Source of the DNA: a virus
Taxonomy: Duplodnaviria > Heunggongvirae > Uroviricota > Caudoviricetes
Length of the DNA: 64,000 nt
Reading direction: 5' to 3' (one strand)
IMG/VR virus record: IMGVR_UViG_2799112330_000002
Coordinates: 346,107 to 410,106 of that record
The position numbers and the translations under genes are program-made. Numbering within the stretch: position 1 is the stretch's first letter; every line of letters begins with the position of its first letter. Positions 1 to 25,488 of this stretch are shown here, in pieces. The notes below the pieces were generated by a model. The model searched no databases. It was not told where the DNA came from and worked only from the letters and a program-made list of their open reading frames with translations.

Positions 1-1
1 T

Positions 2-577
2 AATCCTGATGGAGCATTGTATGTAAAAGGCGCAGAAAACATTGTCAAGCCTATTATTGATTATGTAAAGAAGAACAAGGCAACTATTGATCAGATCATT
101 TTTACAAGAGACTGGCATTTGAACAAAGATGAGTCATTCAAGAAAAATGGTGGTATCTGGCCTGTTCATTGTGTACAGAATACTGAAGGTGCTAACATCA
201 ATAAGGAATTGTATGACGCATTGATTCAGACAAGAATTCCTGTAAAGATTGTCAATAAGGGAACAACATTCAATCATGAAGAATATGGAGCGTTTGAACA
301 CTGTGGAACTTTCCATCATCTTTATCCTAATAGTACTCCAACTGTAAGCAATTGCTATTTTGCTAACTATGAGTCTTCTTCAGGAACAAGAATTGTCAAT
401 GAAGATGTAGTTGTATGTGGAGTTGCTGGTGACTATTGTGTAAAAGAGACAATTAAGAATCTTATTAAGCACTGGAAAAACTTCAAGATTGAGGTCTTTA
501 TGGATGGTATTGCTTCTATTGATGATGGTACTTCTTTGATGGAACTTATTGAAGATAAAAATTTGAAAGTGATCTAA
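2..577 (+). CDS. pncA: nicotinamidase / isochorismatase-family hydrolase (PncA-like), 5'-truncated at window edge
   Basis: Reading frame is open back to base 2 (NPDGALYVKGAE...). Nicotinamidase-like catalytic Cys motif VCGVAGDYCV and the ...DWH... pattern typical of the isochorismatase/PncA fold. The track start at 17 is a TTG. Confidence 0.65.
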   Translation, partial: NPDGALYVKGAENIVKPIIDYVKKNKATIDQIIFTRDWHLNKDESFKKNGGIWPVHCVQNTEGANINKELYDALIQTRIPVKIVNKGTTFNHEEYGAFEHCGTFHHLYPNSTPTVSNCYFANYESSSGTRIVNEDVVVCGVAGDYCVKETIKNLIKHWKNFKIEVFMDGIASIDDGTSLMELIEDKNLKVI

Positions 578-670
578 AGTATCATATAGTAAACTTTAAG
601 GCACTTTTTATATCATAAAGTATCATATAATAACTATTATTTAATAAGTTTAATATAAAAAATATTTACA

Positions 671-1861
671 ATGATTTATTCTATTCTTGACACAGATCTG
701 TATAAGTTCACTACAAGTTATGCTTATATGAAATTGTTTCCAAATGCTGAATGTACTTTCACTTTCAAAGACAGGAACAATGTAAAACGTACTCCACAGT
801 TTCTTAAAAGATTCAAAGCAAAGCTTAAAGAGTTCTGTGAGAATGCTTGTCTTACATCTACTGAATATTATTTGCTTAAAGAATCTCATCGTAGTGATTT
901 CATTCCAACATATTATTGGGAGTGGTTGTATTCATTCCGATTTGATTATGGCAAGATCAAAGTATATCTTAATGAAGATGATGTACTTTGTATGGAGGTA
1001 ACTGATAAATGCTATAAATGTACCTTATATGAGATTCCTTGTATGTTCCTTATTTCAGAGGTCAATAATGAAGACAAAGTTATTGATTGGGAACTAACAA
1101 TGAATAAACTCAGAGAAAAAATTGATTTAGCTAATGAAAATGGAATGCTGTTCTCTGAGTTTGGTACACGTCGTAGATTCAGTCAAGAAGTTCAAGATCA
1201 GGTTTGCTGTATTTTAAAACAATATGCAAAGACTTGTGTAGGAACATCAAACGTATATTTCGCTCTTAAGTATGGAATGAAGCCAATTGGTACACATCCA
1301 CATGAATGGTTTATGTTCCATGGAGCACAGTATGGATATAAGCAGGCTAATTATATTGCTCTTGAGAATTGGGTAAATGTGTATGATGGAGATCTTGGTA
1401 TTGCTCTTTCTGATACATATACATCAGATGTGTTCTTCAATAACTTCTCATTAAAACAGGCTAAGCTTTTTGATGGGGTTCGTCAAGATTCAGGAGATGA
1501 AATTGAATTTATCAAAAAGACTATTGAATTCTACAAGGGAAAGGGAATTGATTATAGTAACAAAACAATTGTATTCTCTAATGCTCTTGATTTTCCTAAA
1601 GCAGTAAAAATTAAGACATATTGTGATAATAGAAATATTAAATGTTCATTTGGAATCGGCACAAATCTTACATGCGATGTATATGATAAAAATGGTGAAA
1701 ATTATCCACATGAAAATATCGTAATGAAGATGTCTCAATGTAGAATGAATGAACATAGTTTATGGCATCCGGCAATTAAGATTTCTGATGATTTTGGAAA
1801 GCATATGGGAAATAATAAAGAATTTGAACATGCATGCTATGAATTGAACATTGTTATTTAA
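671..1861 (+). CDS. pncB: nicotinate phosphoribosyltransferase
   Basis: N-terminus SILDTDLYKFT resembles the PncB signature (LLDTDxYK). Length 396 aa and the GTHPHEW region are consistent with NAPRTase. Confidence 0.7.
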   Translation: MIYSILDTDLYKFTTSYAYMKLFPNAECTFTFKDRNNVKRTPQFLKRFKAKLKEFCENACLTSTEYYLLKESHRSDFIPTYYWEWLYSFRFDYGKIKVYLNEDDVLCMEVTDKCYKCTLYEIPCMFLISEVNNEDKVIDWELTMNKLREKIDLANENGMLFSEFGTRRRFSQEVQDQVCCILKQYAKTCVGTSNVYFALKYGMKPIGTHPHEWFMFHGAQYGYKQANYIALENWVNVYDGDLGIALSDTYTSDVFFNNFSLKQAKLFDGVRQDSGDEIEFIKKTIEFYKGKGIDYSNKTIVFSNALDFPKAVKIKTYCDNRNIKCSFGIGTNLTCDVYDKNGENYPHENIVMKMSQCRMNEHSLWHPAIKISDDFGKHMGNNKEFEHACYELNIVI

Positions 1862-1886
1862 ATTATAAATAATATATAAGTTTTAT

Positions 1887-1912
1887 CCCAGAAATATTGA
1901 ATTATTTCTGGG
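1887..1912 (+). terminator. stem-loop (cccagaaata/atttctggg) whose loop carries TTGAATT, followed by a T-rich run; overlaps the next promoter
   Basis: 9-bp inverted repeat read directly from sequence after the pncB stop. Confidence 0.5.
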
Positions 1913-1938
1913 ATTTACTATATTATAACTGTAATTAA
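1897..1938 (+). promoter_or_regulatory. conserved phage promoter motif TTGAAT-N16-CTATATTATAACTGTAATTAA
   Basis: Member of a >=12-copy intergenic motif family; sigma70-like -35 and -10 spacing. Confidence 0.5.
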
Positions 1939-1950
1939 AAATATAAGAAT

Positions 1951-2193
1951 ATGTTAAAGTATAAATCATCAGATGTTCAAAAGATGGTTGATATTTTTGC
2001 TAAAATTAGTGAAAATAAAGACAATCAGACAAAAGTAATGGATGAACTTAAGAAATTAGTTGACTATCCAGAAAACGTTATTCTAGAATTCTTGCATTGT
2101 ATAGAAATTCTTAATGATAAAGATGAAACTTATCTTAAGGAAAACTACTGGGGAATTATTGGTTATATTACAATGAGGTTGAATTTTTCTTAA
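1951..2193 (+). CDS. hypothetical protein
   Basis: ORF of 80 aa immediately downstream of the promoter motif. Confidence 0.4.
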   Translation: MLKYKSSDVQKMVDIFAKISENKDNQTKVMDELKKLVDYPENVILEFLHCIEILNDKDETYLKENYWGIIGYITMRLNFS

Positions 2194-2206
2194 ATTATAT
2201 ATTAAT

Positions 2207-2530
2207 ATGTTTGCATTAATTAGAGGTACTGGCATGCTAGTTGGAATCTTTTCCACTAAAGAGCATATGAAAGTTGTCATTGAAGAACTGATTGAAAATG
2301 AATATCAGACTTCAGGAGCACATGGTGATTATAATTTCAGATATATTGAATTTGAAATTAATGAACCTTGGTTTAGTGATGATGAATATAATAAAGAAGT
2401 TGGTCAAGCACTATTCAGTCTGTCAACAATGCATACTGAGTATTTTAAGCATTGTATAAAGACAGATTGGTCTACTGGACAAATTCTTGATATGGATTCA
2501 GACAATACTACAAATATAAATGAAAGATAA
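2207..2530 (+). CDS. hypothetical protein
   Basis: ORF of 107 aa, tightly packed. Confidence 0.4.
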   Translation: MFALIRGTGMLVGIFSTKEHMKVVIEELIENEYQTSGAHGDYNFRYIEFEINEPWFSDDEYNKEVGQALFSLSTMHTEYFKHCIKTDWSTGQILDMDSDNTTNINER

Positions 2531-2532
2531 TT

Positions 2533-2805
2533 ATGAAAGTTTATATTGTATCAACTCAGGTATTTTTCAAAGAGAATGGAATTGAATATGCAATGGCTGT
2601 AGATCTCGATGATGATCTAAAACTATTTAGTGACTATTCTAGAGCTGTTAATGAATATAATTCTGTCATTAATAATCTTAGAAATAATTTTATGGATCAT
2701 GAAGAGGAAATTGTTAGACCATCTGAAGACTTGGGAACAGTTCTATATAATAAGTATGAAACTGTCAGTTATGTTGTCAAACTAACATCTAAAGACGTCT
2801 ATTGA
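2533..2805 (+). CDS. hypothetical protein
   Basis: ORF of 90 aa, abuts neighbours. Confidence 0.4.
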   Translation: MKVYIVSTQVFFKENGIEYAMAVDLDDDLKLFSDYSRAVNEYNSVINNLRNNFMDHEEEIVRPSEDLGTVLYNKYETVSYVVKLTSKDVY

Positions 2806-2806
2806 T

Positions 2807-3217
2807 ATGAAAGAAAAACTGTTTTTTATTAGTTTAGCATGCATATTATCAGGTATAATAATTTATCTATTGGGTGGACTTATTTTCAGTTCTCGTCCAG
2901 TTGTTGTGAAAGAAACAAAAGACTACATTTATGTAAAGAAATATGCATTATATAATAGGGATTCTACAGTTTATAAATATCATCAGCCAATAAAGTATGA
3001 TGGTATTGTGACAAGAAAGTATAAATATGGATCTTGGACTGGATTACCCGGTAAGGGTGGTGTTTTTGTATATCATTATAATGTTGATGTTCAGTTCAAT
3101 AATACTACACATAGATTATATGGCAGAAATTATTATGATATGTTTAATGAAGGCAATAAAGTAATTGTAATAGAAAAGTTCTGGCCACGTAATGATTATG
3201 AATACATATTAAAATGA
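2807..3217 (+). CDS. membrane-anchored protein, paralog of 17599..18030
   Basis: N-terminal TM helix. Shares K(Y/F)H(Q/K)PI(K/Y)YDG...G(L/I)PGKGG...(E/K)(K/T)F(W/Y)PR with ORF 17599..18030. Confidence 0.5.
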   Translation: MKEKLFFISLACILSGIIIYLLGGLIFSSRPVVVKETKDYIYVKKYALYNRDSTVYKYHQPIKYDGIVTRKYKYGSWTGLPGKGGVFVYHYNVDVQFNNTTHRLYGRNYYDMFNEGNKVIVIEKFWPRNDYEYILK

Positions 3218-3240
3218 TAATATATAATTACTGTATTTTA

Positions 3241-3289
3241 TTGTGAATTTTTATGGGTTAATTACTATATTTATAACGTAATTAAAATT
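3241..3289 (+). promoter_or_regulatory. promoter motif variant (TTGTGAAT...CTATATTTATAACGTAATTAAAATTT)
   Basis: Matches the recurrent intergenic motif, more degenerate. Confidence 0.35.
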
Positions 3290-3298
3290 TATCAATAT

Positions 3299-4621
3299 AT
3301 GGGTACATATGTACATTTTTCAATCGGAGAAAATCTTGGCAAAGTTCTTCTTGATATTGCTCAAGAACATATTTTGAATGGAGAACCTCAAGAGGCTATT
3401 GAAACATACGTAAAAAGTTTTAATGGTATGAATGAATCCTATGCATTGCAAATTCTTAGGAACAATTTTGTCATTGAGACTTGTGAAGATGGTGTAAACA
3501 TCAATCTTACAAATGATAAAAACGTAAGATTCCAGAATGCTGAATACATCTATGATTGGCAAAAACTTATGAATGACAAGATCAAAGATTTACAAGGTTA
3601 TGTTGAAAGTTATCATGAAATTGTAAAACAGTTTAATAAGCATTCAAATTATGCTATCTATGATGCAAATATTACAGAAATTGTAAAGCGATATTATGGA
3701 GAGGAAAACATGTCTGATGTTGGTATTCATAATATTGCTGCAAAACTTATTGGAGGAGATGATTTTGCATGGAATCTTTATTCAAATGGTTCTAATGTCT
3801 GGTCTCATTTAGAAGGAGATGTTGAAAGTGGTGATGCTAAACCTTATCAATATGCACTGTATTTCATTGTAAAGTATGTCAATCTTATCAGATCAATGTA
3901 TAAGGATTATGTCAAGTTTGAAAAATCTTATATATGGCTTTTAGATAAGATGTTTATCAAGCGTATTCCATTAGTTGAATCAGATATTGAAAATGTATTA
4001 GACATCATTAAAGAATTTTGTAATCCAAATACAGGATATTATCATCCAATGTGCGACGAAAAGATTACAGATCTTAAAGAGACTATCTATGATGAAATTC
4101 TTAAGACATCTTGGGGAAAGGAATATCTACAGAATGGAATCATAAAGAAGAATATTATGGATGGTTATGATGCTGGTTGGCTGTCTCCAGATGGTGAATT
4201 CTATGGAGGTAATGGTCCAACTTCCGCTATGATTCATATGAATATTGCTGAACAGATCTTCAAGGGAAATAATATATATGCTAATAGAATGGCAAAAGAT
4301 GGTGTATCTATTTGGAGTGGAAGTAATTCACCTGACTATTGGCTCGAAAAGGATGGCTGGGTTAAGATCCATCATAATGATTGTTACGGAGCATTCATTG
4401 GTGAAAGAAATCCTGAAAACAGAACACCAGATTTTCCTTATGCATATAAGCCCACAGATATTCAGATCAAAATGATTTGCGACTATGCAGACAAATTTTA
4501 TGGAGGAAAGTTCTATACAGAAGCAAATACACTTAGTAGAGACACACATCCAGATCCCTTTACAACTTATAAGGTTAGACAAATGGATGAATTCAAATTA
4601 CATGAGATTTTTGGAAGATAA
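3299..4621 (+). CDS. hypothetical protein (440 aa)
   Basis: Long ORF with coding-like composition; no motif recognised. Confidence 0.55.
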   Translation: MGTYVHFSIGENLGKVLLDIAQEHILNGEPQEAIETYVKSFNGMNESYALQILRNNFVIETCEDGVNINLTNDKNVRFQNAEYIYDWQKLMNDKIKDLQGYVESYHEIVKQFNKHSNYAIYDANITEIVKRYYGEENMSDVGIHNIAAKLIGGDDFAWNLYSNGSNVWSHLEGDVESGDAKPYQYALYFIVKYVNLIRSMYKDYVKFEKSYIWLLDKMFIKRIPLVESDIENVLDIIKEFCNPNTGYYHPMCDEKITDLKETIYDEILKTSWGKEYLQNGIIKKNIMDGYDAGWLSPDGEFYGGNGPTSAMIHMNIAEQIFKGNNIYANRMAKDGVSIWSGSNSPDYWLEKDGWVKIHHNDCYGAFIGERNPENRTPDFPYAYKPTDIQIKMICDYADKFYGGKFYTEANTLSRDTHPDPFTTYKVRQMDEFKLHEIFGR

Positions 4622-4651
4622 CAATGTCTATTTTAATTATAAAGTAAAGTT

Positions 4652-4807
4652 ATGACACAAGAGGATAAAGAAAAAATAACAAAGTTTTTGAAGACTAATT
4701 TGCATACCCATACGGATTGGACTGGAACATATGTTGAAACTCAATATAAATGTGAGAGTGTTGAGAAGTTTATTGAAATATTTTTTAATTCAATTGAAGA
4801 AAAATAA
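4652..4807 (+). CDS. short member or N-terminal fragment of the MTQE(D/E)K tandem family
   Basis: Begins MTQEDKEK, preceded by the same gttATGacacaagaggataaa DNA start as 5040. Confidence 0.3.
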   Translation: MTQEDKEKITKFLKTNLHTHTDWTGTYVETQYKCESVEKFIEIFFNSIEEK

Positions 4808-4834
4808 AAATCTAAAATAATAAAATAAGAAATA

Positions 4835-5026
4835 ATGGAAAGCAAATTTAAACTTGGTGACATATTCACTAAAAAACATACACGAGATACAATACCTATA
4901 GAAATATATGAAATATCTTATGATGCAAATGAACCAATATATAAGCTAAAACCCATTAGATTATGTGGTGATGATGTTATATTAGGAGAAGAAGCATTAA
5001 TAGAATTATATAATAAAATCAACTAA
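4835..5026 (+). CDS. hypothetical protein
   Basis: ORF of 63 aa. Confidence 0.3.
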   Translation: MESKFKLGDIFTKKHTRDTIPIEIYEISYDANEPIYKLKPIRLCGDDVILGEEALIELYNKIN

Positions 5027-5039
5027 TATTTAATGAATT

Positions 5040-5504
5040 ATGACACAAGAGGATAAAAAACTATTATTGCAAGATCTTAGTGCAAGGCTGTCGTATGGTG
5101 TAATTGTAAGTACCCCTAAAGGTAATGGTCATCTTTGTACAATCAATCAAACCATATTTGGAAATGAATATGGGGTGAATATTGAAGCCACAAAAAGAGA
5201 CAACTTTAATGATAATGAATGCGACATCAAACCTTATCTTTGCCCAATATCAAGTATGACGAAGAAAGAAACTAAAGAATTATTTAAAGAGATTGGTTTT
5301 GAATTCACTTGTAATACTTGGAGAATTCCCGCACATTATAATTATGAGTTTGCCAAACAGATTAAAGGAATTCCAACTATCACTAATGTTGAATTCGTAA
5401 AGATGATTGATTGGCTTAATGCTCATCATTTTGATTATAGGGGACTTATTGAAAAGGGTCTTGCTATTGCTGTTACAGAAGAAAATAATCCTTATAAAGA
5501 ATAA
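5040..5504 (+). CDS. tandem paralog family A member (MTQEDKKLLLQDLSARL...DWLNAHHFDYRGLIEKGLAIAVTEENNPYKE)
   Basis: Shares N- and C-termini with the two following genes. Confidence 0.5.
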   Translation: MTQEDKKLLLQDLSARLSYGVIVSTPKGNGHLCTINQTIFGNEYGVNIEATKRDNFNDNECDIKPYLCPISSMTKKETKELFKEIGFEFTCNTWRIPAHYNYEFAKQIKGIPTITNVEFVKMIDWLNAHHFDYRGLIEKGLAIAVTEENNPYKE

Positions 5505-5508
5505 AGTT

Positions 5509-5889
5509 ATGATACAAGAAGAAAAACAATTACTGTTGAAGGACCTTAGTGCAAGGTTGATGTATGGAATAATCTGTAAATGCTTACATAGTAATAATGT
5601 TAAAGCAACAGCAATTGATACAGAAGATTCATCAGTATATTATTTTGATTGTGATGAATGGGAATCTATTGAATATTGCAAGCCATATCTCCGTCCAATG
5701 TCTTCAATGACTGATGAAGAGAAAAAAGAATTATTTGAGATTGGTTGTGAAGGAAATATTGAATATCCTTATGGTATGTACTTTAGATGTCAAGACTGGC
5801 TTAATGCTCATCATTTTGATTATCGTGGACTTATTGAAAAGGGTCTTGCTATTGCTGTTACTGAAGAAAATAATCCTTATAAAAAATAA
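5509..5889 (+). CDS. tandem paralog family A member
   Basis: ATG at 5509 gives MIQEEKQLLLKDLSARL...; the C-terminal 30 aa are almost identical to the previous gene. The track ORF extends upstream into the previous gene in a different frame. Confidence 0.5.
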   Translation: MIQEEKQLLLKDLSARLMYGIICKCLHSNNVKATAIDTEDSSVYYFDCDEWESIEYCKPYLRPMSSMTDEEKKELFEIGCEGNIEYPYGMYFRCQDWLNAHHFDYRGLIEKGLAIAVTEENNPYKK

Positions 5890-5893
5890 AGTT

Positions 5894-6304
5894 ATGACAC
5901 AAGAAGAAAAACAACTATTGATCCAAGACCTTTCAACAAGGTTGCCATACAAAACGTATGTTAAAACAACAAAAGGCATTGGCTATGTCTATGCTATAAA
6001 TACCTCTCAATTAGTTGAATTAAGCGTTGCTAATGATTCTGAATATTGGTCAGAAGTATTTAATATTGAGAAAATAAAACCATATCTCCGCTCAATGTCA
6101 AGTATGACTGAGGAAGAGACTATTGAATTTATAAATCTTACAGATAGTATTATAAAATTTGTAAATAAGCATTATGCGGTATTAAGTCTTCAACAAATTG
6201 ACTGGCTCAATGTACATCACTTTGACTATCAGGAATTAATTCCAAAAGGTCTTGCCATTGAGGTAACAAAAGATAATAATCCTTATGAAAAACAATACAG
6301 TTAA
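5894..6304 (+). CDS. tandem paralog family A member
   Basis: ATG at 5894 gives MTQEEKQLLIQDLSTRL...DWLNVHHFDYQELIPKGLAIEVTKDNNPYEK. Confidence 0.5.
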   Translation: MTQEEKQLLIQDLSTRLPYKTYVKTTKGIGYVYAINTSQLVELSVANDSEYWSEVFNIEKIKPYLRSMSSMTEEETIEFINLTDSIIKFVNKHYAVLSLQQIDWLNVHHFDYQELIPKGLAIEVTKDNNPYEKQYS

Positions 6305-6602
6305 GCAAATACGAGTATGTCTTGAAGAAGTTGCATCTTCAATTAATGAGTTTATTGACGAAATAATTGAAGATTTTAAATTAAAAGAAGCATATAAGAA
6401 TGGTGAAGAAGTAGAGATACAATATAGAGGAATTGGGCTTAACGGGGATTTTCATGAAGACATTCATCGTTCTGATGACGAGATAATCTATATACTTCAT
6501 AATGACAAAACTGTTGGAATAATAATTGAAAGACGTACATCTTTCAATAATGCTGAACTTACATTCATAAAAACATCAAAAAGAAAATTTAGAAAACTAT
6601 GA
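6285..6602 (+). CDS. hypothetical protein
   Basis: ORF of 105 aa. Confidence 0.4.
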   Translation: MKNNTVKQIRVCLEEVASSINEFIDEIIEDFKLKEAYKNGEEVEIQYRGIGLNGDFHEDIHRSDDEIIYILHNDKTVGIIIERRTSFNNAELTFIKTSKRKFRKL

Positions 6603-6994
6603 AAATTAATGAAAACATTAAGACTGAATTACCTTGTCCTCCTGATATGGATAAGCAATGTATAGAATTATATTATCTTTTGAATAGTCTGCCTGACACA
6701 CATACATTTGAATCTTGTTGTGGGCATGAAAGAGAAGTATATATGATGTTCTTCAGATGCTTTAATATTGGTGTATTATCAAGATTAGGAAGGGCTGTTT
6801 CAAGAAACTATTCTGACGGCAATTGGGAGATTGTCATTGATATAACAGACACAATGCCTTATGGGTGCTTCTGGCTTAGGACAACAAGTGTCCTTAAAAA
6901 GGATGAACTTGATGAAAGTCTTAAGGGGCTTATTGATAACATCCAATATTGGTTCAATGATGAGTTTGACAATTATTTCAGTATAGACAAATAA
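6599..6994 (+). CDS. hypothetical Cys/His-containing protein
   Basis: ORF of 131 aa; 4-nt overlap with the upstream gene. Confidence 0.45.
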   Translation: MKINENIKTELPCPPDMDKQCIELYYLLNSLPDTHTFESCCGHEREVYMMFFRCFNIGVLSRLGRAVSRNYSDGNWEIVIDITDTMPYGCFWLRTTSVLKKDELDESLKGLIDNIQYWFNDEFDNYFSIDK

Positions 6995-7007
6995 TCTATA
7001 AGAATCA

Positions 7008-7051
7008 ATTGAATTTTCTGAAGATTGTTCTATATTATAATTGTAATAATT
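7008..7051 (+). promoter_or_regulatory. conserved promoter motif TTGAAT-N16-CTATATTATAATTGTAATAATTAA
   Basis: Motif family. Confidence 0.5.
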
Positions 7052-7202
7052 AAAAATTGAATATATTATGTATACAAGAGCAGAATTGTTAGAAATGGGA
7101 ATGGATGAGCTTGAGCAGCTTTATGAAGAGTCTGCTGGAGACTATGATTCAGTAGAAGATCTTATGGAGTCTAATGGATTAATTTAGGTAATAATTAAAT
7201 TT

Positions 7203-7514
7203 TTGAATATGAAGTTTACAATTGGAATTAAGCCTACTATTCTAACGGGATATGGAACAACAAAGGCCGCAAAGGAAAGAGTTAGAAGTTCAGTAAATCA
7301 GTGTTTTAGTTATTCATCTATAGGAAATGGGTGGATGAATTCAAAATATGTTTATGGATATAATATTGAGGTTTATAAACGTGGAAAGCATCGTCACAAT
7401 AAGCATTATATTGTTTATAAATATACATTTCCCATTGAAATGTTTAAGCTTATGAATGTTGAAATTTCACAAGGTCCCAGAACATTTAAGATTACCAGAA
7501 AAAAAATAATATAA
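7203..7514 (+). CDS. hypothetical basic protein
   Basis: ORF of 103 aa. Confidence 0.35.
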   Translation: MNMKFTIGIKPTILTGYGTTKAAKERVRSSVNQCFSYSSIGNGWMNSKYVYGYNIEVYKRGKHRHNKHYIVYKYTFPIEMFKLMNVEISQGPRTFKITRKKII

Positions 7515-7641
7515 TGGAAATTGATTATCAAAAACTGTTTCAAGATGCTGCTATAGCATGGCAGGAAAATGATTATAAACCAATTCACATTAGTAATAGA
7601 TTTCTTAATATTATAAATAAACATTGTAAAAATAGATAGTT

Positions 7642-8532
7642 ATGGACTACGCAAAAGTTTTTGAAACAATGGTTAATGAGACACAGAAATATCTTGAGTC
7701 AAATAATCTTCAAGCAATGATTTTGGGTATTTCTGGCGGATTAGACTCAACAGTTACAGCTGCAATTTGTCATGAGGTTGAGAAACGAAATCCAGAGCTC
7801 AAGTTTATTGGTATTTCTCTTCCATGTTCCTCAAATTCTGAAGAAGAAAATGATTCCGCAAAAATTTGCATGAAGGCATTTTGTAAGTCAGGACAATGGT
7901 GGACAGAGAATCTTCAGAAGGAATATATGCTTATGCGAGCTACTTGTTCACAAAGACATCTTATGACAACAATTGGTCAGGGAAATATCAAGGCTCGTCT
8001 TCGTATGACATATCTTTATAATGAAGCTAATTATTTCAACGGTCTTGTAATGGACACTGACAATCTTACAGAGCATTATCTTGGATTCTTCACAATTCAT
8101 GGAGATGTTTGTGACTTCAATCCAATCGGTGGCCTTTGGAAGCATGAAGTATATTATCTTGCAGAGTATCTTTATACAGATTATTATGATGCTCCGTTTG
8201 GTCCTGATGGAGAAAGACATTTGGCTTTAGAACATGCTTTGAAGATCACTCCTACAGATGGAAACGGAGTAAATGATCTTGGAGACATGGGACAGATTGC
8301 TCCTGAATTTGCTTATTGTAAGAATATGGATGCTTATGAAAAGGTAGACAATATTATCAGGACATATCTTTATGGCATTCAGAGTCATCCTGAGGTATTT
8401 CAGGCAAGCATGCAGACATTATATGATACATATACACCAGAAACAGTAGATGGTATTATCAGAAGAATAAAATCTACAGAATACAAACGTAAGAAACTTC
8501 CTATTGTAGTTGGCAGAAAAAAATATGAATAA
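7642..8532 (+). CDS. nadE: NH3-dependent NAD+ synthetase
   Basis: PP-loop ISGGLDSTV (SGGxDS) near the N-terminus; 296 aa, typical NadE size. Confidence 0.7.
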   Translation: MDYAKVFETMVNETQKYLESNNLQAMILGISGGLDSTVTAAICHEVEKRNPELKFIGISLPCSSNSEEENDSAKICMKAFCKSGQWWTENLQKEYMLMRATCSQRHLMTTIGQGNIKARLRMTYLYNEANYFNGLVMDTDNLTEHYLGFFTIHGDVCDFNPIGGLWKHEVYYLAEYLYTDYYDAPFGPDGERHLALEHALKITPTDGNGVNDLGDMGQIAPEFAYCKNMDAYEKVDNIIRTYLYGIQSHPEVFQASMQTLYDTYTPETVDGIIRRIKSTEYKRKKLPIVVGRKKYE

Positions 8533-8701
8533 TATTTAAGAAGATAATTAAAATTTTTGAATTATGGCTTATGTGATTTCAGATGAAGAGTTAGATAGAA
8601 TTTGTGAAAGGTCAGAACAGACTTGTGGATGTGATTGCAAGAACTGTGAAGCATTCTGGGCAAATTATCGGTATAATAATCAATAAAAAAGAATAAGTAT
8701 T

Positions 8702-8923
8702 ATGAAAAAGAAATTTGGTATTATAACAATTATTATGGTTTTTGTTATTGGGTTTATGATTGGCGTATTTACAAATTCAGTAAAAGCAGTCAAATCTCCA
8801 GATCCAGTACCAGCAGTCAATAATGTACAAAGATATAGTGTAGATGTTCAAAGTGTCTATTACAATGGAAGAACATATGTAGTATTCACTTCATCAGCTC
8901 CAAGTATGTGTGTTAGACCATAA
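8702..8923 (+). CDS. small membrane/secreted protein
   Basis: N-terminal hydrophobic helix. Confidence 0.4.
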   Translation: MKKKFGIITIIMVFVIGFMIGVFTNSVKAVKSPDPVPAVNNVQRYSVDVQSVYYNGRTYVVFTSSAPSMCVRP

Positions 8924-8942
8924 ATCAATTAAAGTATAGAAT

Positions 8943-9218
8943 ATGGAGACAGTAAAAGTAGAAAATAGTCAGACAGATAAGATCAATGAGTTCAAGAAAC
9001 TGCTTCATTCAGGTATTGTGGAATTCAAATATACAAAGAAGAATGGAGAAGTTAGGGATGCTCGTGGTACATTGTCTATTGATGTAATGGGAAAAGAGAA
9101 TGAGCCTAAGGGAGGTGGAAAAGAATATCCGGAGAATGTTGTAAGATATTATGACTTGAATTCTGAAGGATGGCGTTCATTTGTCTTTGAAAACTTGATT
9201 GAATACAAAAAGACATAA
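8943..9218 (+). CDS. hypothetical protein
   Basis: ORF of 91 aa. Confidence 0.4.
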   Translation: METVKVENSQTDKINEFKKLLHSGIVEFKYTKKNGEVRDARGTLSIDVMGKENEPKGGGKEYPENVVRYYDLNSEGWRSFVFENLIEYKKT

Positions 9219-9241: not shown

Positions 9242-9442
9242 ATGAATCGTCTTAAAGCATTATGGAGAGTACTTATATCTGATGAGTTCTTTGTTATGAC
9301 AACTCATCAGATAATTGAAAGTGACTATAATCATCACGAATTAGAATATAAATGTATCAAGAACACTCATAGAGAAGGTTTTAAATATTATCTATACAGG
9401 TGGTTGCATGATCATGAAGCCTCTTTCTATGATGATATGTAG
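9242..9442 (+). CDS. hypothetical protein
   Basis: ORF of 66 aa. Confidence 0.3.
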   Translation: MNRLKALWRVLISDEFFVMTTHQIIESDYNHHELEYKCIKNTHREGFKYYLYRWLHDHEASFYDDM

Positions 9443-9668
9443 TCAATGTTCTTTTATATATATTTATTTGTAATAAAAGAAAACTATTTATATGAAAATG
9501 TTTTATTATTTTATAACAAATATATATAATAAATAGACTTAATGAAACCAGTTGAGAAATTTCAAAGAATTAGAGACTATATAGATTCCCAGAATATTTG
9601 TGATTTTCTTATTGAATATATGAGTGATGATGAGCTTGAGAATCTATGTCATGAATTAGAAGAAGAAT

Positions 9669-9896
9669 TTGATGTACAATATGACGATGAATACGAAGAA
9701 TATGAATATTAAAGAACAATTAAACAAGCTTATACTTGATACAGCTGAAGCTAATGCAAAAGAAGCTATAAGTCAATTGAAGGAATCAAAGTTTGGAGAT
9801 CTTGAGAAATCACTTATGATTGTCTTAAAGAATCTTTACATCAAAGGTATAAATGACGGTGCTCAATTAACACTTCAGAGTAAACCTGAAAAGTAG
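9669..9896 (+). CDS. hypothetical protein
   Basis: ORF of 75 aa. Confidence 0.3.
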   Translation: MMYNMTMNTKNMNIKEQLNKLILDTAEANAKEAISQLKESKFGDLEKSLMIVLKNLYIKGINDGAQLTLQSKPEK

Positions 9897-10015
9897 AAGT
9901 CAAGTATACAGGAATAATTCACACAGATGGCCGCAGAATGACCCAGACTCATCTCAATATAAAGAGTAATAAAATTATATATCCTTAGAAAAACAGTTTA
10001 GTAGAGTTCATCAGA

Positions 10016-10844: not shown

Positions 10845-11318
10845 ATGATTGGAACATTAACATTTAAGAAGTTTACTGGAGAGAAGCTAGAGAACGTAGA
10901 GGAATATGTAAAGAACTATTGTGAGGAGCATAAGAATGACAATATTGAGATTCTTGTTGGAACAGACTCACAGAACAAGAGAAGCTATACTACATATTCA
11001 ACAGTAATAGCAATGTATACACCAGGACATGGCGCTCATTGCATATTCAAGAGATGGAGAACTCCAAAAGAGAGAATCCGTAATACAAGACTTTTGAAAG
11101 AGGTAGAAGAAAGCTTAAACATTGCCGAAAGTCTTGTTAAATACGGATGTCCAAAGCCAAAGTATATTGATATAGACATAAACCCAAATCCAAAATATAA
11201 GTCAAATGAAGTATATCAGGCAGCAAGAGGCTGGATTGAGGGAATGGGCTATGAAGTGAGATACAAAACATTAGCACCATTGGTTACTACAGTAGCTGAC
11301 TGGCTAGTAAAATCATAA
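10845..11318 (+). CDS. hypothetical protein, possibly YkuK/DUF458-like RNase H-fold
   Basis: Motifs VGTDSQ...GHGAH...DINPNPKYKS, recalled from memory as resembling the YkuK family; unverified. Confidence 0.45.
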   Translation: MIGTLTFKKFTGEKLENVEEYVKNYCEEHKNDNIEILVGTDSQNKRSYTTYSTVIAMYTPGHGAHCIFKRWRTPKERIRNTRLLKEVEESLNIAESLVKYGCPKPKYIDIDINPNPKYKSNEVYQAARGWIEGMGYEVRYKTLAPLVTTVADWLVKS

Positions 11319-11430: not shown

Positions 11431-12405
11431 ATGATTAAAGAATTTAAAACTCGTACTGGGGCAATTTATTGTGATACTGATAAGACTATGGAGTATCTTT
11501 ATGTTGGAGATTATGGTCAGGAAAATAATATTAAGGCTGATTTTCTTGGATTCAAGAAGGAAATCAACTCTGTTCCCCATCATAAAGTAGACCTAAAAGA
11601 TAAGATGGTTGTCACAATCTCAACACAGAAAGGCTGTCCAATGAAATGTATGTTCTGTGACTGTCCCAAAGTAAAATTTGGAGGTAATATCTCTAGAGTA
11701 GAACTTGCAGAAGAGGTTACTCAGGCTATTGCTTTTAGTGGTTGTAAGTACACAAGAAGATTTAATCTTCATTTAGCAAGAATGGGAGAGCCTTCTTTTA
11801 ATGCTAGAAATGTTCTTGATTTCTTAAAGTATGACCTTCGTGGTTTAGTAAATAATATGATGAAGGCAGACACTATTCATCCAGTATTTACGACAATGTG
11901 TCCAAAAGGAATCGGAAAAGAAAAGTTGGCAAGTATTCTTCAAGAATTCTGTTCTATTAAGAATGATGATTATAATGGAGAAGCTGGACTGCAGTTATCT
12001 ATTAATTCAACCGATGAAGCTCAAAGAAATCAGTTATTCAGGGGTTGTTCATTAACACTTCAAGAAATTTCCGATATTGCTAAAGAGCTTCCAATGCCAA
12101 AAGGTAGAAAATATACATTAAACTTCCCAGTTACAGATACAATAATATTAGATCCTAAGGAGTTAAGCAGATTGTTTGATAAAGACAAGTTCATTGTAAA
12201 GATTACTCCAATTCATGAGACTAATGAAGCTAATGAAAATGGAATCGGAACTCCAGAAGGATATTATAAGTATGATGTATATAGACAATTTGAGCAGCCA
12301 CTTTTGGCAGAAGGTTGGCAAGTAATTGTATTCATACCATCTAAGGAAGAAGATGAAGATCGCATTACTTGTGGAAATGCATTATTATCAATGGAAGAAA
12401 AATGA
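11431..12405 (+). CDS. radical SAM enzyme, RlmN/Cfr-like RNA adenine methyltransferase family
   Basis: STQKGCPMKCMFCDC (CxxxCxxC cluster; compare RlmN SSQVGCAMGCSFCAT). MGEPSFN matches the MGMGEPL SAM motif. C-terminal ITCGNAL matches the RlmN/Cfr catalytic AaCGQL cysteine. Confidence 0.6.
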   Translation: MIKEFKTRTGAIYCDTDKTMEYLYVGDYGQENNIKADFLGFKKEINSVPHHKVDLKDKMVVTISTQKGCPMKCMFCDCPKVKFGGNISRVELAEEVTQAIAFSGCKYTRRFNLHLARMGEPSFNARNVLDFLKYDLRGLVNNMMKADTIHPVFTTMCPKGIGKEKLASILQEFCSIKNDDYNGEAGLQLSINSTDEAQRNQLFRGCSLTLQEISDIAKELPMPKGRKYTLNFPVTDTIILDPKELSRLFDKDKFIVKITPIHETNEANENGIGTPEGYYKYDVYRQFEQPLLAEGWQVIVFIPSKEEDEDRITCGNALLSMEEK

Positions 12406-13085
12406 AATTCATATTTGTAAATAGCTCTCCAAAGAATGAAGATTCCTGTGTTGAACGAGCATTTGATGAAATAAAGAATGTTCTTAAGTCAAATGGGCAT
12501 ACAGTGACAAGTTTCTATATTCATGTATTTGAAGATTGTAGAAACTGTAGAAACTGTAAGAATGGATTGCCATGCCCACTGAAAGACGCAAATATAATTG
12601 ACAATTTTATGGAAGAATCTGAAACTGCTGATGGGATAATATTTGGGTCACCTGTCTATTATGGAGGAATAACAAGTCAGATGAAAGCATTTCTGACCAG
12701 ACTGTTCTTTTCAAATCCAAAAGCATTAATGCTCAAGCCAATAGCAACTGTTGTTTCATCAAGACGTGCAGGTAGTACAACAGCTTTATCAGAATTCAAT
12801 CTTCCATTCTTAATGCATTCATGTATTCTTGTTGGATCTCAATATTGGAATGAAGTTCATGGTGACACCCAAGAAGATGTTGAATTGGATTATGAGGGTC
12901 TTCAATGTATGCGAACATTAGCACAAAATATGATGTTTGTTGCAGATGCATTAAAAAACAAAGAACACCCACAACATGAAGTCAAAAAGCATTTGAATTA
13001 TATATCACGTGAATATAAAGCATATATTAATAATGATAAAGAAATGAAAGAGCTTTATGATATGATTTCATCTTCATATGAATAA
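12402..13085 (+). CDS. flavodoxin-like NAD(P)H-dependent FMN reductase / iron-sulfur flavoprotein
   Basis: MKFIFVNSSPK...IFGSPVYYGGITSQMKAFLTRL is typical of the FMN_red/Isf family. Cys cluster CRNCRNCKNGLPC. ATG at 12402 overlaps the upstream stop (ATGA), implying translational coupling. Confidence 0.6.
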   Translation: MKFIFVNSSPKNEDSCVERAFDEIKNVLKSNGHTVTSFYIHVFEDCRNCRNCKNGLPCPLKDANIIDNFMEESETADGIIFGSPVYYGGITSQMKAFLTRLFFSNPKALMLKPIATVVSSRRAGSTTALSEFNLPFLMHSCILVGSQYWNEVHGDTQEDVELDYEGLQCMRTLAQNMMFVADALKNKEHPQHEVKKHLNYISREYKAYINNDKEMKELYDMISSSYE

Positions 13086-13103: not shown

Positions 13104-13976
13104 ATGTTCGGTAAATTAAGATATAATGTAAACCCTTGTGATCATGGATTTAGTGAGTTTATTGTGCATTTGACAAAATCATGTGAAAACAAATGCCCAT
13201 TTTGTATTGCTGCTAAATATGATGACAAAGGATATATAAAGCCAAATATAAAAGCTATATGTGAAACGCTTAAAAAATATGAAGGAAAATCTCCGTATGT
13301 AACAATTGGTGGTGGTGAACCTTTGCTATTTCTTGATGAAGTCATTGAACTTATTGATTGGATAAGAGCAAACATGCAACTTGAAATATATATTGTAACT
13401 TCAATTCCATACACCTGTTACAAGAATCCTGATAAGTTCATGTATATTGTAAATCATGTTGACAACTTTCAGATAACTACTCAGCATTATGATGAAAAAA
13501 TAGCAGATGAAATAAGAGGTAGCAAATCTAAGTTTAGTCATAATGAATTTCTAAGATCAATTCCAAACAAAGACAAGATCATATTGAATGTGAATGCATG
13601 TGCCCCATATATAAAGACTAAACAAGACATCATAGATAATATCAAGTTCTTTTATTATATGGGATATAAGAACTATAGATTGGTTGAAATCAAAGATCAC
13701 CCAGATATGTTTGTTGATATCCCAAAGACTCTTGGTGTAAAGATTAAGCCATTATTTGGGTGGGGCTGCAAGCAAGAAGTTGATTTTTCACAATTCATTC
13801 CAGGATTTGATGGCAAAGTCATAATGAATATGTCATGTTTCCTGAGGGATAAGCATCGTAAAGCAAATATATGGGATATGATTAAGTCTATGACACGTCC
13901 ATTATTTAGTAAGAAACATTTCTTTGGTGTCATATATGAAGATGGTTCAATATATCCATATTGGTTATCTAAATAG
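13104..13976 (+). CDS. radical SAM enzyme (second), function unknown
   Basis: CENKCPFC (CxxxCxxC) near the N-terminus; TIGGGEPLLF glycine-rich SAM motif. Confidence 0.6.
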   Translation: MFGKLRYNVNPCDHGFSEFIVHLTKSCENKCPFCIAAKYDDKGYIKPNIKAICETLKKYEGKSPYVTIGGGEPLLFLDEVIELIDWIRANMQLEIYIVTSIPYTCYKNPDKFMYIVNHVDNFQITTQHYDEKIADEIRGSKSKFSHNEFLRSIPNKDKIILNVNACAPYIKTKQDIIDNIKFFYYMGYKNYRLVEIKDHPDMFVDIPKTLGVKIKPLFGWGCKQEVDFSQFIPGFDGKVIMNMSCFLRDKHRKANIWDMIKSMTRPLFSKKHFFGVIYEDGSIYPYWLSK

Positions 13977-14380: not shown

Positions 14381-14406
14381 CTCAAAATTCACATATAAAA
14401 TATATA

Positions 14407-14438
14407 AATCTGGAAATGCAAGTTTCCAGATTTTTTTG
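14407..14438 (+). terminator. intrinsic terminator (aatctggaaa / tttccagatt plus T7)
   Basis: 10-bp stem followed by ttttttt. Confidence 0.65.
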
Positions 14439-14467
14439 TCTTTATATTCAATTAAATTAAACAATAA

Positions 14468-14510
14468 TTGAATTTTTCAAAAATGTAACTATATTATTAA
14501 TGTAATAATA
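14468..14510 (+). promoter_or_regulatory. conserved promoter motif
   Basis: TTGAAT-N16-ACTATATTATTAATGTAATAATA. Confidence 0.5.
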
Positions 14511-14540
14511 TTGATTGTTTAACTTAATTATATTAAAGAT

Positions 14541-14864
14541 ATGAACAAGAATTTTGCAGAAGTAGATTTTAACAATGTTATTGGTACTTCATTCCATTAT
14601 GGCGTCATCTATAATACTGCCGAAGAGATCTCAAATGTCTTGGGAACATATTTTACTGGAGATAAAGACAAGGTATGGAGAGAGTGGATGAGGGTTACTG
14701 ATGATGGTACAGTCTTCACAGTATATGACTGGAAAGATGGTTATGTCTCAGAAACTAAGCCTCTCTACTATCATATCGGAACACATACAGCAGAAGAGAC
14801 TAAAAAGATTGTAGAAATTCTTAAGGAGGCAGGTCTTAATGCTTCTATTGACAAACTTTTCTAA
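14541..14864 (+). CDS. hypothetical protein
   Basis: ORF of 107 aa. Confidence 0.45.
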   Translation: MNKNFAEVDFNNVIGTSFHYGVIYNTAEEISNVLGTYFTGDKDKVWREWMRVTDDGTVFTVYDWKDGYVSETKPLYYHIGTHTAEETKKIVEILKEAGLNASIDKLF

Positions 14865-14879: not shown

Positions 14880-16769
14880 ATGACTCAAAAGGAAAAACTG
14901 GAGCTTTACAATAAAGCAAAAGAGGCTTATTACAATGGTCAGGAGATTATGACTGACTATGAGTTTGACCAATTGGAGAAGGAGCTTGGTCTTGAGAACA
15001 AATCAAATGTCGGTTCTAAGCATAATCCTTCTTATACCGTCAAGCATCCATTCATTATGGGTTCTCTTTCAAAAGTACAGATCCATAAAGACAAGGATGG
15101 CAACATTGACTGGAAAAAATACAATGAGCAGGTTGCTAACTATATTGATATGGAGAATTCTTTTCATGTTATCATTACTCCTAAATTTGATGGTTGCTCA
15201 TTTGAATGTGAAATCAACAATGACAAGATCCAGTCAATTTCTTCAAGAGGAGATGGCAAATGGGGTAAAGACTTAATGAATCATCTAATCAATTTCATTC
15301 CAAGTGAATATGTACATTTAGAGGGCCATTATGTACTTCGTGGAGAGGTATTGGTGAAGAAGTCAATATTTGAACAGAAATATGCAGAGAAGTTTACTAA
15401 TCCCCGTTCGTTTGTTTCTGGTGTTTTGAACCGAGATTATAGTGGATTAGATAAAGAATTTCTTGAAATGCTTAATGATCTTTCAATTGTTATTTATGAC
15501 TATAGATCTGAGCGTTATGGGACTTGGATTGATCATGAGTTTACTGAGCTTCCTTATAATAATGTTCTTCCTTCTTATTATAATAGAGATGCTTCAATTT
15601 ATGAATCTGATGCTCTTGAGAAAGTATATAATGCATATGCTGATTATCGAAAGACCTGTGAATATGCTTTGGATGGAATTGTAATCAAACCTATTGTTAA
15701 GAATCGTAGAAATAATCTTACTGAACATCGTCCTAAGGATTGTGTAGCAATTAAATTCATTCCCATGCTTCAGGAAACAGAAGTCGTGAATATCACCTGG
15801 AACCTCGGTAAGACTCATGAATTCATTCCTATTATTTGGGTAAAACCTGTAGAGATGGATGGCCGAATGGTACAGAAGTGTTCAGGTCATAATCTTGGTT
15901 ATCTTCGTCAAAAAGGAATTACTGTTGGTGCAAAGATTATTATGAGTTTGGCTGGTGACATTATTCCATTTATGTACAAGGTGACTCAAGAAAATCCTGA
16001 TGGAGAAATCCCAATGCCAACTACTTATGGTTATTATGAGGATGACATCCACCTGATGGCACTTATGGAGATGAAAGACAGAATCAGAATGCAATTCTTG
16101 TCTTCAGTAACATCACTTAATATCCCAACAATTGGTAATCAAACTGCAAAAGAAATATGGGAATATTTAGACAATACTGATGAACAAACTATGGAGTTTT
16201 TTGAAGTGGAGAAAAAAGAAATGCCATTCAATATTCTGCTTTGCTCACCTGAGGAAGTTTATTTTGGCGCTGGTTGTGGAAAACTTGGAGAAAATGCCAA
16301 GAAAGCATTTAAGAACATTCTTGATAATCTCACTCTTAATGACATTGTCAAATCATGTAATTTTCCATTCTGTGGTCCAAAAGTTGCAGAACAGGTTGTA
16401 AATCATCTTCTTGGTGAAATTCCTAATTGGGCTCATCTTGCAACAGAAGGATATCTTTGGGTATATGATACTAATTCATGGCAATATCAAAATGTTATGA
16501 AGATTCTGAATCATCTTGGAAAGAATTTTGATGACTTCAAGTTCCAACATCAAGAAGCTGTCAAAGAATCATCCAATCAGATTCCAGTCATTCTTACTGG
16601 TGAACCTGTCAACTATAAGTCAAAGGGAGAGTTCTTGAAGCTTAACCCACAATATAGAAATACAGGATCATGGAAAGAGGTACAGATTGTATTTACCAAT
16701 TCTATGGATAGTAATACAGGCAAGATGAAGAAAGCAAGAGAGAAGAACATTGAAATTAGATTATATTAA
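14880..16769 (+). CDS. ligA: NAD+-dependent DNA ligase (LigA-type)
   Basis: N-terminal Ia-like AYYNGQEIMTDYEFDQLEKEL. Adenylation motif ITPKFDGCS (KxDG). 629 aa, LigA size. Confidence 0.65.
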   Translation: MTQKEKLELYNKAKEAYYNGQEIMTDYEFDQLEKELGLENKSNVGSKHNPSYTVKHPFIMGSLSKVQIHKDKDGNIDWKKYNEQVANYIDMENSFHVIITPKFDGCSFECEINNDKIQSISSRGDGKWGKDLMNHLINFIPSEYVHLEGHYVLRGEVLVKKSIFEQKYAEKFTNPRSFVSGVLNRDYSGLDKEFLEMLNDLSIVIYDYRSERYGTWIDHEFTELPYNNVLPSYYNRDASIYESDALEKVYNAYADYRKTCEYALDGIVIKPIVKNRRNNLTEHRPKDCVAIKFIPMLQETEVVNITWNLGKTHEFIPIIWVKPVEMDGRMVQKCSGHNLGYLRQKGITVGAKIIMSLAGDIIPFMYKVTQENPDGEIPMPTTYGYYEDDIHLMALMEMKDRIRMQFLSSVTSLNIPTIGNQTAKEIWEYLDNTDEQTMEFFEVEKKEMPFNILLCSPEEVYFGAGCGKLGENAKKAFKNILDNLTLNDIVKSCNFPFCGPKVAEQVVNHLLGEIPNWAHLATEGYLWVYDTNSWQYQNVMKILNHLGKNFDDFKFQHQEAVKESSNQIPVILTGEPVNYKSKGEFLKLNPQYRNTGSWKEVQIVFTNSMDSNTGKMKKAREKNIEIRLY

Positions 16770-16781: not shown

Positions 16782-17141
16782 ATGATTATGACAATTCCTT
16801 TACATTTTATTATTTGTGGTGCCTTTGTTATCTTGGTAATTGGCCTTTTACTTGGTAATAAGATTGGACAGATGGGTATGACTAAATTCAATATCAATGC
16901 TGATTTAATTGTAAAACCTGATGGTTTTCTAGGACCCGAATTTAAGGTAGTAAAAGTTGAAGAAGCATGTGAGAAACATAAAATAGATAGGTTGAAGACT
17001 AATGAACATGGATATACTACAAAGATTGCAAAATATACAATCCAGAATTCTTTCTATTCATGGAAAAAAGACATATATATTTTCTATGATAAACTCGGAC
17101 AATATAATGTCGGTGATATACTTTATTTAACAAAATATTAA
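16782..17141 (+). CDS. membrane-anchored hypothetical protein
   Basis: N-terminal TM helix. Confidence 0.4.
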   Translation: MIMTIPLHFIICGAFVILVIGLLLGNKIGQMGMTKFNINADLIVKPDGFLGPEFKVVKVEEACEKHKIDRLKTNEHGYTTKIAKYTIQNSFYSWKKDIYIFYDKLGQYNVGDILYLTKY

Positions 17142-25273: not shown

Positions 25274-25488
25274 TTGATACAGAAGAACTACTAAATAGAT
25301 TATACAAAAGAGCAGAAGAAGGATATTATGATGATAAGCCCGCGTATCAGTTTTCTAAAGATGAACTGAACTTGATGCATTATCTTGGATGGATGGATGA
25401 AGCAAGTTACAATATTAAGAAACAAAAATTAGAACAGAGAATTGATGAGTATTATTGTCTTGAACAACATTATTTATTAGTAATATGA
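25270..25488 (+). CDS. hypothetical protein
   Basis: ORF of 72 aa; overlaps neighbours by 4 nt. Confidence 0.35.
   Translation: MIDTEELLNRLYKRAEEGYYDDKPAYQFSKDELNLMHYLGWMDEASYNIKKQKLEQRIDEYYCLEQHYLLVI

Follow-up and report, generated by a model that had tools for sequence, protein, structure and literature searches.

Nicotinamidase, nicotinate phosphoribosyltransferase and NAD+ synthetase genes of a probable rumen jumbo phage: part of a putative phage-specific NAD+ salvage module

What does a tailed phage gain from genes that could turn nicotinamide back into nicotinamide adenine dinucleotide (NAD+)? The question is raised by a stretch of 64,000 nucleotides of a Caudoviricetes virus (IMG/VR record IMGVR_UViG_2799112330_000002, positions 346,107 to 410,106; the whole stretch is called the window below), in the first 8,532 nucleotides of which a preliminary description, made from the sequence alone, had proposed three of the four enzymes of the deamidated (Preiss-Handler) route. 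In this route the nicotinamidase PncA converts nicotinamide to nicotinate and ammonia, the nicotinate phosphoribosyltransferase PncB makes nicotinate mononucleotide (NaMN) from nicotinate and phosphoribosyl pyrophosphate (PRPP), NadD converts NaMN to nicotinate adenine dinucleotide (NaAD), and the NAD+ synthetase NadE forms NAD+. The explanation that we favour, with a probability of roughly 0.6, is a general role in NAD+ maintenance: the intact phage PncA, PncB and ammonia-dependent NadE would be the part of a phage-specific NAD+ salvage module that this genome carries. The features on which the argument turns are the following (numbers in the form 1.1e-15 are E-values here and below).

2-577, plus strand: PncA, predicted nicotinamidase, residues 26-216 of 216 amino acids (aa) (Pfam Isochorismatase and solved-structure matches)
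671-1861, plus strand: PncB, predicted nicotinate phosphoribosyltransferase, 396 aa (Pfam, NCBIfam, solved structure)
1951-7514, plus strand: about 12 small or unknown open reading frames (ORFs) between PncB and NadE, outside the pathway
7642-8532, plus strand: NadE, predicted single-domain ammonia-type NAD+ synthetase, 296 aa (Pfam, NCBIfam, PP-loop)
14880-16769, plus strand: NAD+-dependent DNA ligase (Pfam DNA_ligase_aden, 1.1e-15; DNA_ligase_OB, 2.9e-13)
35178-35837, plus strand: Nudix hydrolase, predicted ADP-ribose/NAD-metabolism type (Pfam NUDIX, 4.2e-10)

Positions 1-8532 hold 14 plus-strand ORFs, three of which match families of NAD metabolism. These three are the ORFs that had been proposed as PncA, PncB and NadE, and their matches to the family hidden Markov models (HMMs) lie above the Pfam or NCBIfam cut-offs, for PncA when the full-length protein is used.

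The window begins inside the pncA gene and holds only its C-terminal 191 codons; the first 25 codons, including that of the catalytic Asp19, lie upstream. The complete gene of the 216-aa protein was found at positions 9257-9907 of the upstream flank (locus L001), which comes from contigs with a PncB identical to that of the window. The fragment scores 24.7 bits in Pfam, under the cut-off of 27, whereas the full-length protein matches Isochorismatase (PF00857) with 44.9 bits. Comparison of the full-length protein with solved nicotinamidases gave 2.9e-23 for 2h0r and 1.2e-22 for 1ilw/1im5, and in the alignment with the P. horikoshii enzyme 1im5 the triad D19/K111/C171 falls on D10, K94 and C133, and the metal site D62/H64/H81 on D52, H54 and H71. 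The metal-binding Asp/His/His site was our criterion for separating nicotinamidases from other hydrolases of the isochorismatase family. Five of these residues are encoded in the window (D62 at 110-112, H64 at 116-118, H81 at 167-169, K111 at 257-259 and C171 at 437-439). Among 78 viral homologs C171 is always kept, K111 is kept in 73 and replaced by Tyr in the remaining 5, and D19, D62, H64 and H81 show no change wherever the alignment extends that far (76-77 homologs). Judged by its sequence, PncA is a divergent, phage-specific branch. Its best PHROG match is phrog_19305 (1.3e-23), a family of 'unknown function' that, to judge from the residues of the catalytic and metal sites, could be annotated as nicotinamidase.

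PncB is, from its family matches and motif, an unambiguous predicted nicotinate phosphoribosyltransferase. The N-terminal and the catalytic domain are both present (Pfam NAPRTase_N, 2.8e-19; NAPRTase, 4.5e-54), and the protein exceeds two NCBIfam cut-offs (TIGR01514, 363.2 bits against 269.55; NF003704, 384 against 379). The closest solved structure is 2im5 (E=1.7e-97), which we take to be the enzyme of Porphyromonas gingivalis. The motif GTHPHEW (residues 207-213, window positions 1289-1309) also occurs in the aligned 2im5 and 1yir, and is invariant across 80 viral PncB homologs; by comparison with Salmonella PncB, its His is presumably the site of autophosphorylation. Nicotinamide phosphoribosyltransferase (Nampt) was considered as another identity for PncB and rejected, as the match to the PHROG family of that name is weak (2.7e-9) against the 363 bits obtained with TIGR01514.

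NadE matches Pfam NAD_synthase (5e-39) and TIGR00552 (129.5 bits, cut-off 63.65), and its PP-loop SGGLDS forms residues 31-36 (window positions 7732-7749). The catalytic residues named in the preliminary description, the Asp/Lys/Cys triad of PncA and the nucleotide-binding loop of NadE, are thus both present. Pfam and the solved structures cover only residues 1-178 of NadE. The best full-length family match is NCBIfam PRK13981, in which residues 4-289 align with the synthetase half (266-522 of 546) of two-domain enzymes; phrog_36784 likewise extends to about residue 289. The phage protein corresponds to the synthetase half only and has no glutaminase domain, so it would need free ammonia. The C-terminal half is well conserved, with 32 columns at least 90% conserved in 59 distinct viral homologs, and the motifs PTDG.G, Y..VD and KR...PI are conserved among the viral homologs. 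The best solved matches are two ordinary ammonia-dependent NAD synthetases (3p52, 6.8e-24; 1xng, 9e-19), followed in third place by the Francisella NadE 3fiu (4.1e-16).

The fourth enzyme, NadD, had been reported as absent from the window, and our searches agree and extend this result to both flanks. There was no Pfam CTP_transf_like match in any window ORF of at least 60 aa, and a phage NadD HMM, made from 52 distinct sequences, gave no match in the window, in the 9.3 kb upstream of it (L001) or in the 8.35 kb downstream (locus L084), a span of about 81.7 kb in all. NadM and NadR were not found in these three regions either. The NadD step would hence come from the host or from a part of the genome beyond this span. 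To our knowledge NadD is nearly universal in bacteria. Two homologs of the NadD-like gene of the related locus L004 were considered as the NadD of this phage and rejected. The first (P0011) is encoded on a rumen scaffold of 441 kb, next to genes 88-96% identical to those of L004/L005 that have no counterparts in the window, which assigns it to a different phage. The second (P0017) belongs to a closer relative, with a ligase 80% identical to that of the window; at the corresponding position the window has a different gene and no NadD remnant.

The relatives of this locus show what the module looks like elsewhere. A PncB-based scan yielded 80 related IMG/VR loci, and in 70 of them PncA, PncB, NadE, NadD and the Nudix gene follow one another in this order within 4.1-7.4 kb (median span 5.0 kb). 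A NadD-family gene is present in 72 of the 80; the one cassette NadD that was scanned scored 146.9 bits with TIGR00482 (cut-off 112.45), which makes it a true NadD. In the five nearest relatives by PncB (74-77% identity) PncA and PncB are always adjacent, and in three of the five there is a NadD-like gene within 10 kb. Four nearest relatives, on contigs of 158-435 kb, have a NadE 63-69% identical to that of the window; in these the gap between PncB and NadE is 0.7-2.6 kb, and nearly all neighbour genes differ. Just after the NAD cassette, locus L013 (14787-15230) and 70 other related loci have a conserved gene for a YqeY-like protein (Pfam, 5.5e-27), which was not found in the window.

The clustering of the genes appears to be a feature of the phages. 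The nearest cellular relatives of the phage PncB, 56-60% identical, are those of Bacteroides, Phocaeicola, Paraprevotella and Parabacteroides, yet in 78 of 80 Bacteroidales chromosomal loci no relative of PncA, NadE, NadD or the cassette Nudix is encoded within 5 kb of pncB. In a neighbour-joining tree calculated without bootstrap, the viral PncBs group together as a single clade, separate from their cellular counterparts. The absence of NAD-gene clustering around the Bacteroidales pncB shows that the clustering is a phage-specific arrangement, which in turn speaks for selection that acts on the whole pathway. Two contigs from metagenome-assembled genomes binned as 'Tenericutes' and 'Firmicutes' (L086, CAMJMP010000002.1, and L087, CAMJOB010000004.1) have NadD next to a PncB of the phage clade; they are probably mis-binned phage contigs.

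As to the source of the window, exact copies of its proteins were found in cow-rumen assemblies of PRJEB21624, and contigs of 0.2-1 Mb are recorded for the exact PncB, Nudix and 1490-aa proteins. These copies, and the recorded size of the contigs, suggest that the source is a rumen jumbo phage. The assembly collection in which PncB, the Nudix hydrolase and the 1490-aa protein were found has no exact match to the NadE and ligase of the window, which may thus stem from a strain slightly different from that of the indexed contigs. A search for near-identical DNA among GenBank phages gave only a 150-bp match at 81% identity, so the GenBank phages do not include this genome.

The ligase and the Nudix hydrolase, which the preliminary description had mentioned as further NAD-related genes, are both real, and both bear on the purpose of the module. 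The module stands in a replication context, with a family-B DNA polymerase directly upstream of PncA and the NAD+-dependent ligase, with its adenylation and OB domains, in the window. The ligase protein is 80% identical to that of the rumen relative L180 (2764-5249), where, as in L178, L179 and L181-L184, a 201-aa NadD starts at the ligase stop codon and overlaps it. The DNA homology between the window and L180 ends exactly at the ligase stop, and the window continues with an unrelated 119-aa ORF (16782-17141). The abutment of NadD and ligase in the L180 lineage ties NAD+ synthesis directly, at the level of the genome, to a replication enzyme that uses NAD+, and it makes provisioning of replication a serious alternative to counter-defence. 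The Nudix protein corresponds to the one whose gene comes last in the cassettes of related phages; it shares 48% identity with that of L013, and its Nudix box is intact (35481-35549). A profile of 14 phage Nudix homologs found as best solved matches NrtR (3gz8, 6e-11), 2fml and the NadM-Nudix enzyme 2qjt (8.5e-8). On the evidence of these matches the family is nearest to NrtR and to the Nudix domain of NadM-Nudix, which places it in a predicted ADP-ribose-binding branch tied to NAD metabolism.

These observations suggest how the module could maintain the NAD+ pool. PncA would deamidate nicotinamide to nicotinate with release of ammonia, and PncB would use the nicotinate, with PRPP, to make NaMN. 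This would be converted to NaAD by the NadD of the host, or possibly by a phage NadD encoded beyond the 82 kb searched, and NadE would amidate NaAD to NAD+ with free ammonia, which may be supplied by PncA and by the ammonia-rich rumen. ADP-ribose is probably hydrolysed to AMP and ribose-5-phosphate by the Nudix protein. As a result, the NAD+ pool of the infected cell would be kept up for NAD+ users of the phage such as the ligase, and any breakdown of NAD+ would be buffered.

Several observations weigh against this explanation. PncA remains under the NCBIfam equivalog cut-off for nicotinamidase/pyrazinamidase (NF008623, 74.1 bits against 174). The module is dispersed in the window, with 5.8 kb between PncB and NadE and 27 kb between NadE and the Nudix gene, and the deamidated pathway is incomplete in the span searched for NadD. 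It must also be noted that an NAD-dependent ligase releases nicotinamide mononucleotide (NMN), not nicotinamide, thus the demand of the ligase alone would leave the entry through PncA and PncB unexplained.

The last point leads to the strongest of the alternatives, the use proposed in the preliminary description. The module could be a dedicated counter-defence, a deamidated analogue of the phage pathway NARP2: the products of TIR, SIR2, DSR or SEFIR NADases would be recycled, nicotinamide by PncA, PncB, NadD and NadE, and ADP-ribose would be disposed of or recycled by the Nudix hydrolase, so that NAD+ is restored and the phage escapes abortive infection. What makes this plausible is that a nicotinamidase entry and a Nudix partner of the ADP-ribose type suit exactly the two products of NAD+ glycohydrolysis, unlike the NMN of the ligase. 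The retention of the five-gene cassette in at least 70 viral contigs is also in its favour, as are the clustering of a similar NAD gene set in the unrelated cultured jumbo phage Phosso and the SLOG/DprA-like proteins that are interleaved in some cassettes (here a SLOG-family YAcAr protein is encoded about 8 kb upstream of PncA). Moreover, NARP1 (Adps+Namat), NARP2 (Nampt+Nmnat; 10.1101/2024.02.11.579819) and NARP3 (PnuC+NadR; PMC13464706), all of them amidated routes, demonstrate that rebuilding of NAD+ can defeat NAD+-depleting defences. On the other hand, we found no published test of a deamidated phage route against NADase defences, and a four-step route that needs PRPP, and ATP for the NadD and NadE steps, would be a costlier way to outrun an NADase (for the extra cost see PMC9316036). 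The failure to find NadD in 81.7 kb of this genome also counts against it, and the genomic context is one of replication, not of anti-defence islands. We therefore regard a dedicated counter-defence function as possible, and put it forward only tentatively. With the same reserve it can be speculated that the compact cassette PncA-PncB-NadE-NadD-Nudix constitutes a fourth, deamidated pathway of NAD+ reconstitution, which would recycle both NADase products, could reuse the ammonia of PncA in the NadE step, and might shield gut and rumen Bacteroidota phages from immunity of the Thoeris, SIR2 or DSR type. With respect to its main benefit, the NAD+-maintenance role that we prefer leaves room for both provisioning and counter-defence; both are compatible with the context, and provisioning fits it equally well.

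Two further explanations are far less probable. NadE could be an NMN synthetase that acts on NaMN, as the Francisella enzyme does; PncA, PncB and NadE would then lead to NMN with no need for NadD, and NAD+ would be completed by an NMN adenylyltransferase. Such a pathway would account for the failure to find NadD, and the Francisella enzyme is indeed among the three best solved matches of NadE. The ordinary NAD synthetases match better, however; a NadD-family gene stands beside the homologous NadE in 72 of the 80 related loci, with the scanned NadD of a compact cassette passing its family cut-off, and no NMN adenylyltransferase of the NadM or NadR type was seen in the window. We consider this explanation very improbable. 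It is just as hard to believe that the cassette is decaying in this phage or persists by chance, its genes having no function as a pathway, or that the sole task of PncA is the removal of nicotinamide, which might for instance free NAD+-consuming enzymes from product inhibition. The fragmentation of the cassette speaks for such a reading: about 12 unrelated ORFs stand between PncB and NadE, the Nudix gene is displaced and NadD was not found. Against it, PncA, PncB and NadE are intact with every catalytic motif, and four other jumbo relatives have kept the trio while nearly all genes around it have been exchanged.

The interval between PncB and NadE (1951-7514) holds the ORFs listed above, none of which has a Pfam match; their single PHROG match is weak and is to a family of unknown function (phrog_10841). 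It belongs to three tandem, partly overlapping paralogs at 5040-6304, which have the C-terminus DWLNAHHFDYRGLIEKGLAIAVTEENNPYK in common. The 440-aa ORFan at 3299-4621 has no homolog in any related locus. A family of paralogs of about 136-143 aa (2807-3217, 17599-18030 and L001 14-424) is characterized by an N-terminal membrane helix and the motif G(I/L)PGKGG, and homologs of this small-protein family adjoin NAD genes in the jumbo relatives L004-L007. In AT-rich DNA such as this, a scan of positions 1-9000 for sigma-70 promoters and terminators gave about as many matches as chance would, and the promoters of the likely hosts are of other types.

To survey the rest of the window, the concatenated ORFs were scanned against Pfam and the matches were mapped back to window coordinates. 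The following further features were noted.

10845-11318: RNase H-like protein (Pfam scan)
11431-12405: second radical-SAM candidate
12369-13085: FMN reductase, NADPH-dependent-like (Pfam scan)
13104-13976: radical-SAM protein (Pfam scan)
43988-46776, minus strand: SbcC/SbcD-like pair
49783-50868: 5'-3' exonuclease
50922-53744: LRR protein

The radical-SAM gene at 13104-13976 and the FMN reductase-like gene are adjacent. The candidate at 11431-12405 is 23% identical to a radical-SAM-like 297-aa ORF (itself outside the Pfam scan) upstream of the L013 cassette, and has homologs in 27 related loci. The distance from the ligase to the block of baseplate-like and SbcCD genes is about 3.4 kb in L179/L180 and about 26 kb in the window. 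The additional DNA is filled with paralog families (19213-20691, 31029-32261, 32600-33958 and 37220-37744; 20893-21246, 22897-23295, 23507-23902 and 24130-24486; 24842-25273, 25485-25859 and 25856-26278), and the region 17000-42500 looks like a lineage-specific expansion. At 62520-63995 there is a tRNA cluster, of which three genes (Met, Glu, Ser) are in the window; it continues past the 3' end (L084 1-10000) and is followed by a 5'-nucleotidase (NT5C) gene. The YAcAr protein of the SLOG family upstream of PncA is encoded at L001 959-1588 (Pfam, 2.2e-10, and a DprA-like match). Two proteins of the L013 cassette (12261-12866 and 14401-14787) are of SLOG type and match phrog_768 or phrog_289. 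Pairwise BLAST between the 201-aa cassette protein and the upstream YAcAr protein was not significant, though both match phrog_768.

If the module works as we propose, abundant gut and rumen phages of Bacteroidota would turn nicotinamide back into NAD+ themselves, which would bear on how phages cope with NAD+-depleting immunity and on the NAD and niacin metabolism of the gut. For an experimental test the compact five-gene cassette of the 70 IMG/VR contigs would be a more natural construct than the dispersed copy of the window, in which NadD was not found.

It is instructive to compare the module with related systems. The closest described counterparts are the 174 'NAD-jumbo phages' from animal guts, some of which have Preiss-Handler clusters pncB-nadD-nadE (Li et al. 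2024, Microbiome, PMC11662467). These clusters occur mainly in the 'Kuafu' clade (e.g. Kuafu_71, pncB-nadD-nadE), whose predicted hosts are all Bacteroidota, and a phage pncA is also mentioned (PMC11662467). Like them, the phage studied here is linked to the gut or rumen and to Bacteroidota and is probably a jumbo phage, with its own pncB and nadE and with NAD consumers such as the NAD-dependent ligase. It differs in that it includes PncA as the entry step, and in that no NadD was found within 81.7 kb, whereas a complete pathway is the criterion for NAD-jumbo phages. The genes nadE, nadD and pncAB have also been described as viral metabolic genes on human gut viral contigs (PMC11780533, 2025). 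The compact cassette PncA-PncB-NadE-NadD-Nudix is found on viral contigs of 64-188 kb (IMG/VR; GenBank MT835470 from human faeces). It is contiguous and has a true NadD, in contrast to the dispersed genes of the window, and the proteins of the window are 32-45% (PncA), 51-57% (PncB), 35-43% (NadE) and 34-49% (Nudix) identical to those of the cassette. The PncA-PncB salvage of Bacteroidales, also a Preiss-Handler route, uses the same enzyme families as the phage module; its pncB is unclustered in all but two of the 80 chromosomal loci mentioned above.

Among the NARP systems the nearest is NARP2, represented by the Vibrio phage KVP40 with NadV/Nampt and NatV, an Nmnat fused to a Nudix domain. 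In both cases a phage-encoded route from nicotinamide to NAD+ is accompanied by a Nudix hydrolase of the ADP-ribose type. NARP2 has two amidated steps via NMN, whereas the route of the window would have four deamidated steps via nicotinate, NaMN and NaAD; and KVP40/NARP2 is backed by biochemistry and counter-defence data, whereas the module of the window is known from its genes. NARP1, which ligates ADP-ribose pyrophosphate (ADPR-PP), and NARP3, which imports nicotinamide riboside, also rebuild NAD+, but with enzymes and substrates unrelated to those of the window, and no homologs of their enzymes were seen in the Pfam scan of the window ORFs. The Aravind-group surveys included only NadV, NadM and NadR systems.

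Outside Bacteroidota, a comparable gene set is present in the cultured jumbo phage Phosso of Sinorhizobium (PV764938.1, 268.3-274.4 kb), which encodes NadE, PncB, a MutT-type Nudix protein, an adenylyltransferase and a PncA-like hydrolase within 6 kb. Phosso differs from the window in its alphaproteobacterial host, in gene order and in sequence (26-32% identity). Its adenylyltransferase is annotated as NMNAT and does not match the phage NadD model. The 144-aa protein of the compact cassettes was considered as a nucleoside deoxyribosyltransferase like the neighbour of the Phosso cluster; no similarity was found. Phage Atu_ph07 is, like Phosso, annotated with PncB and partner genes, and phage G carries a PncA-like gene. 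The claim of the preliminary description that the route is distinct from the described phage pathways can be upheld: it differs from the amidated NARP1, NARP2 and NARP3. The deamidated gene set as such, however, has already been published for phages (PMC11662467, PMC11780533 and Phosso). To the known occurrence of Preiss-Handler genes in gut and jumbo phages the present comparison adds the phage-specific clustering of these genes and the abutment of NadD and the NAD-dependent ligase.

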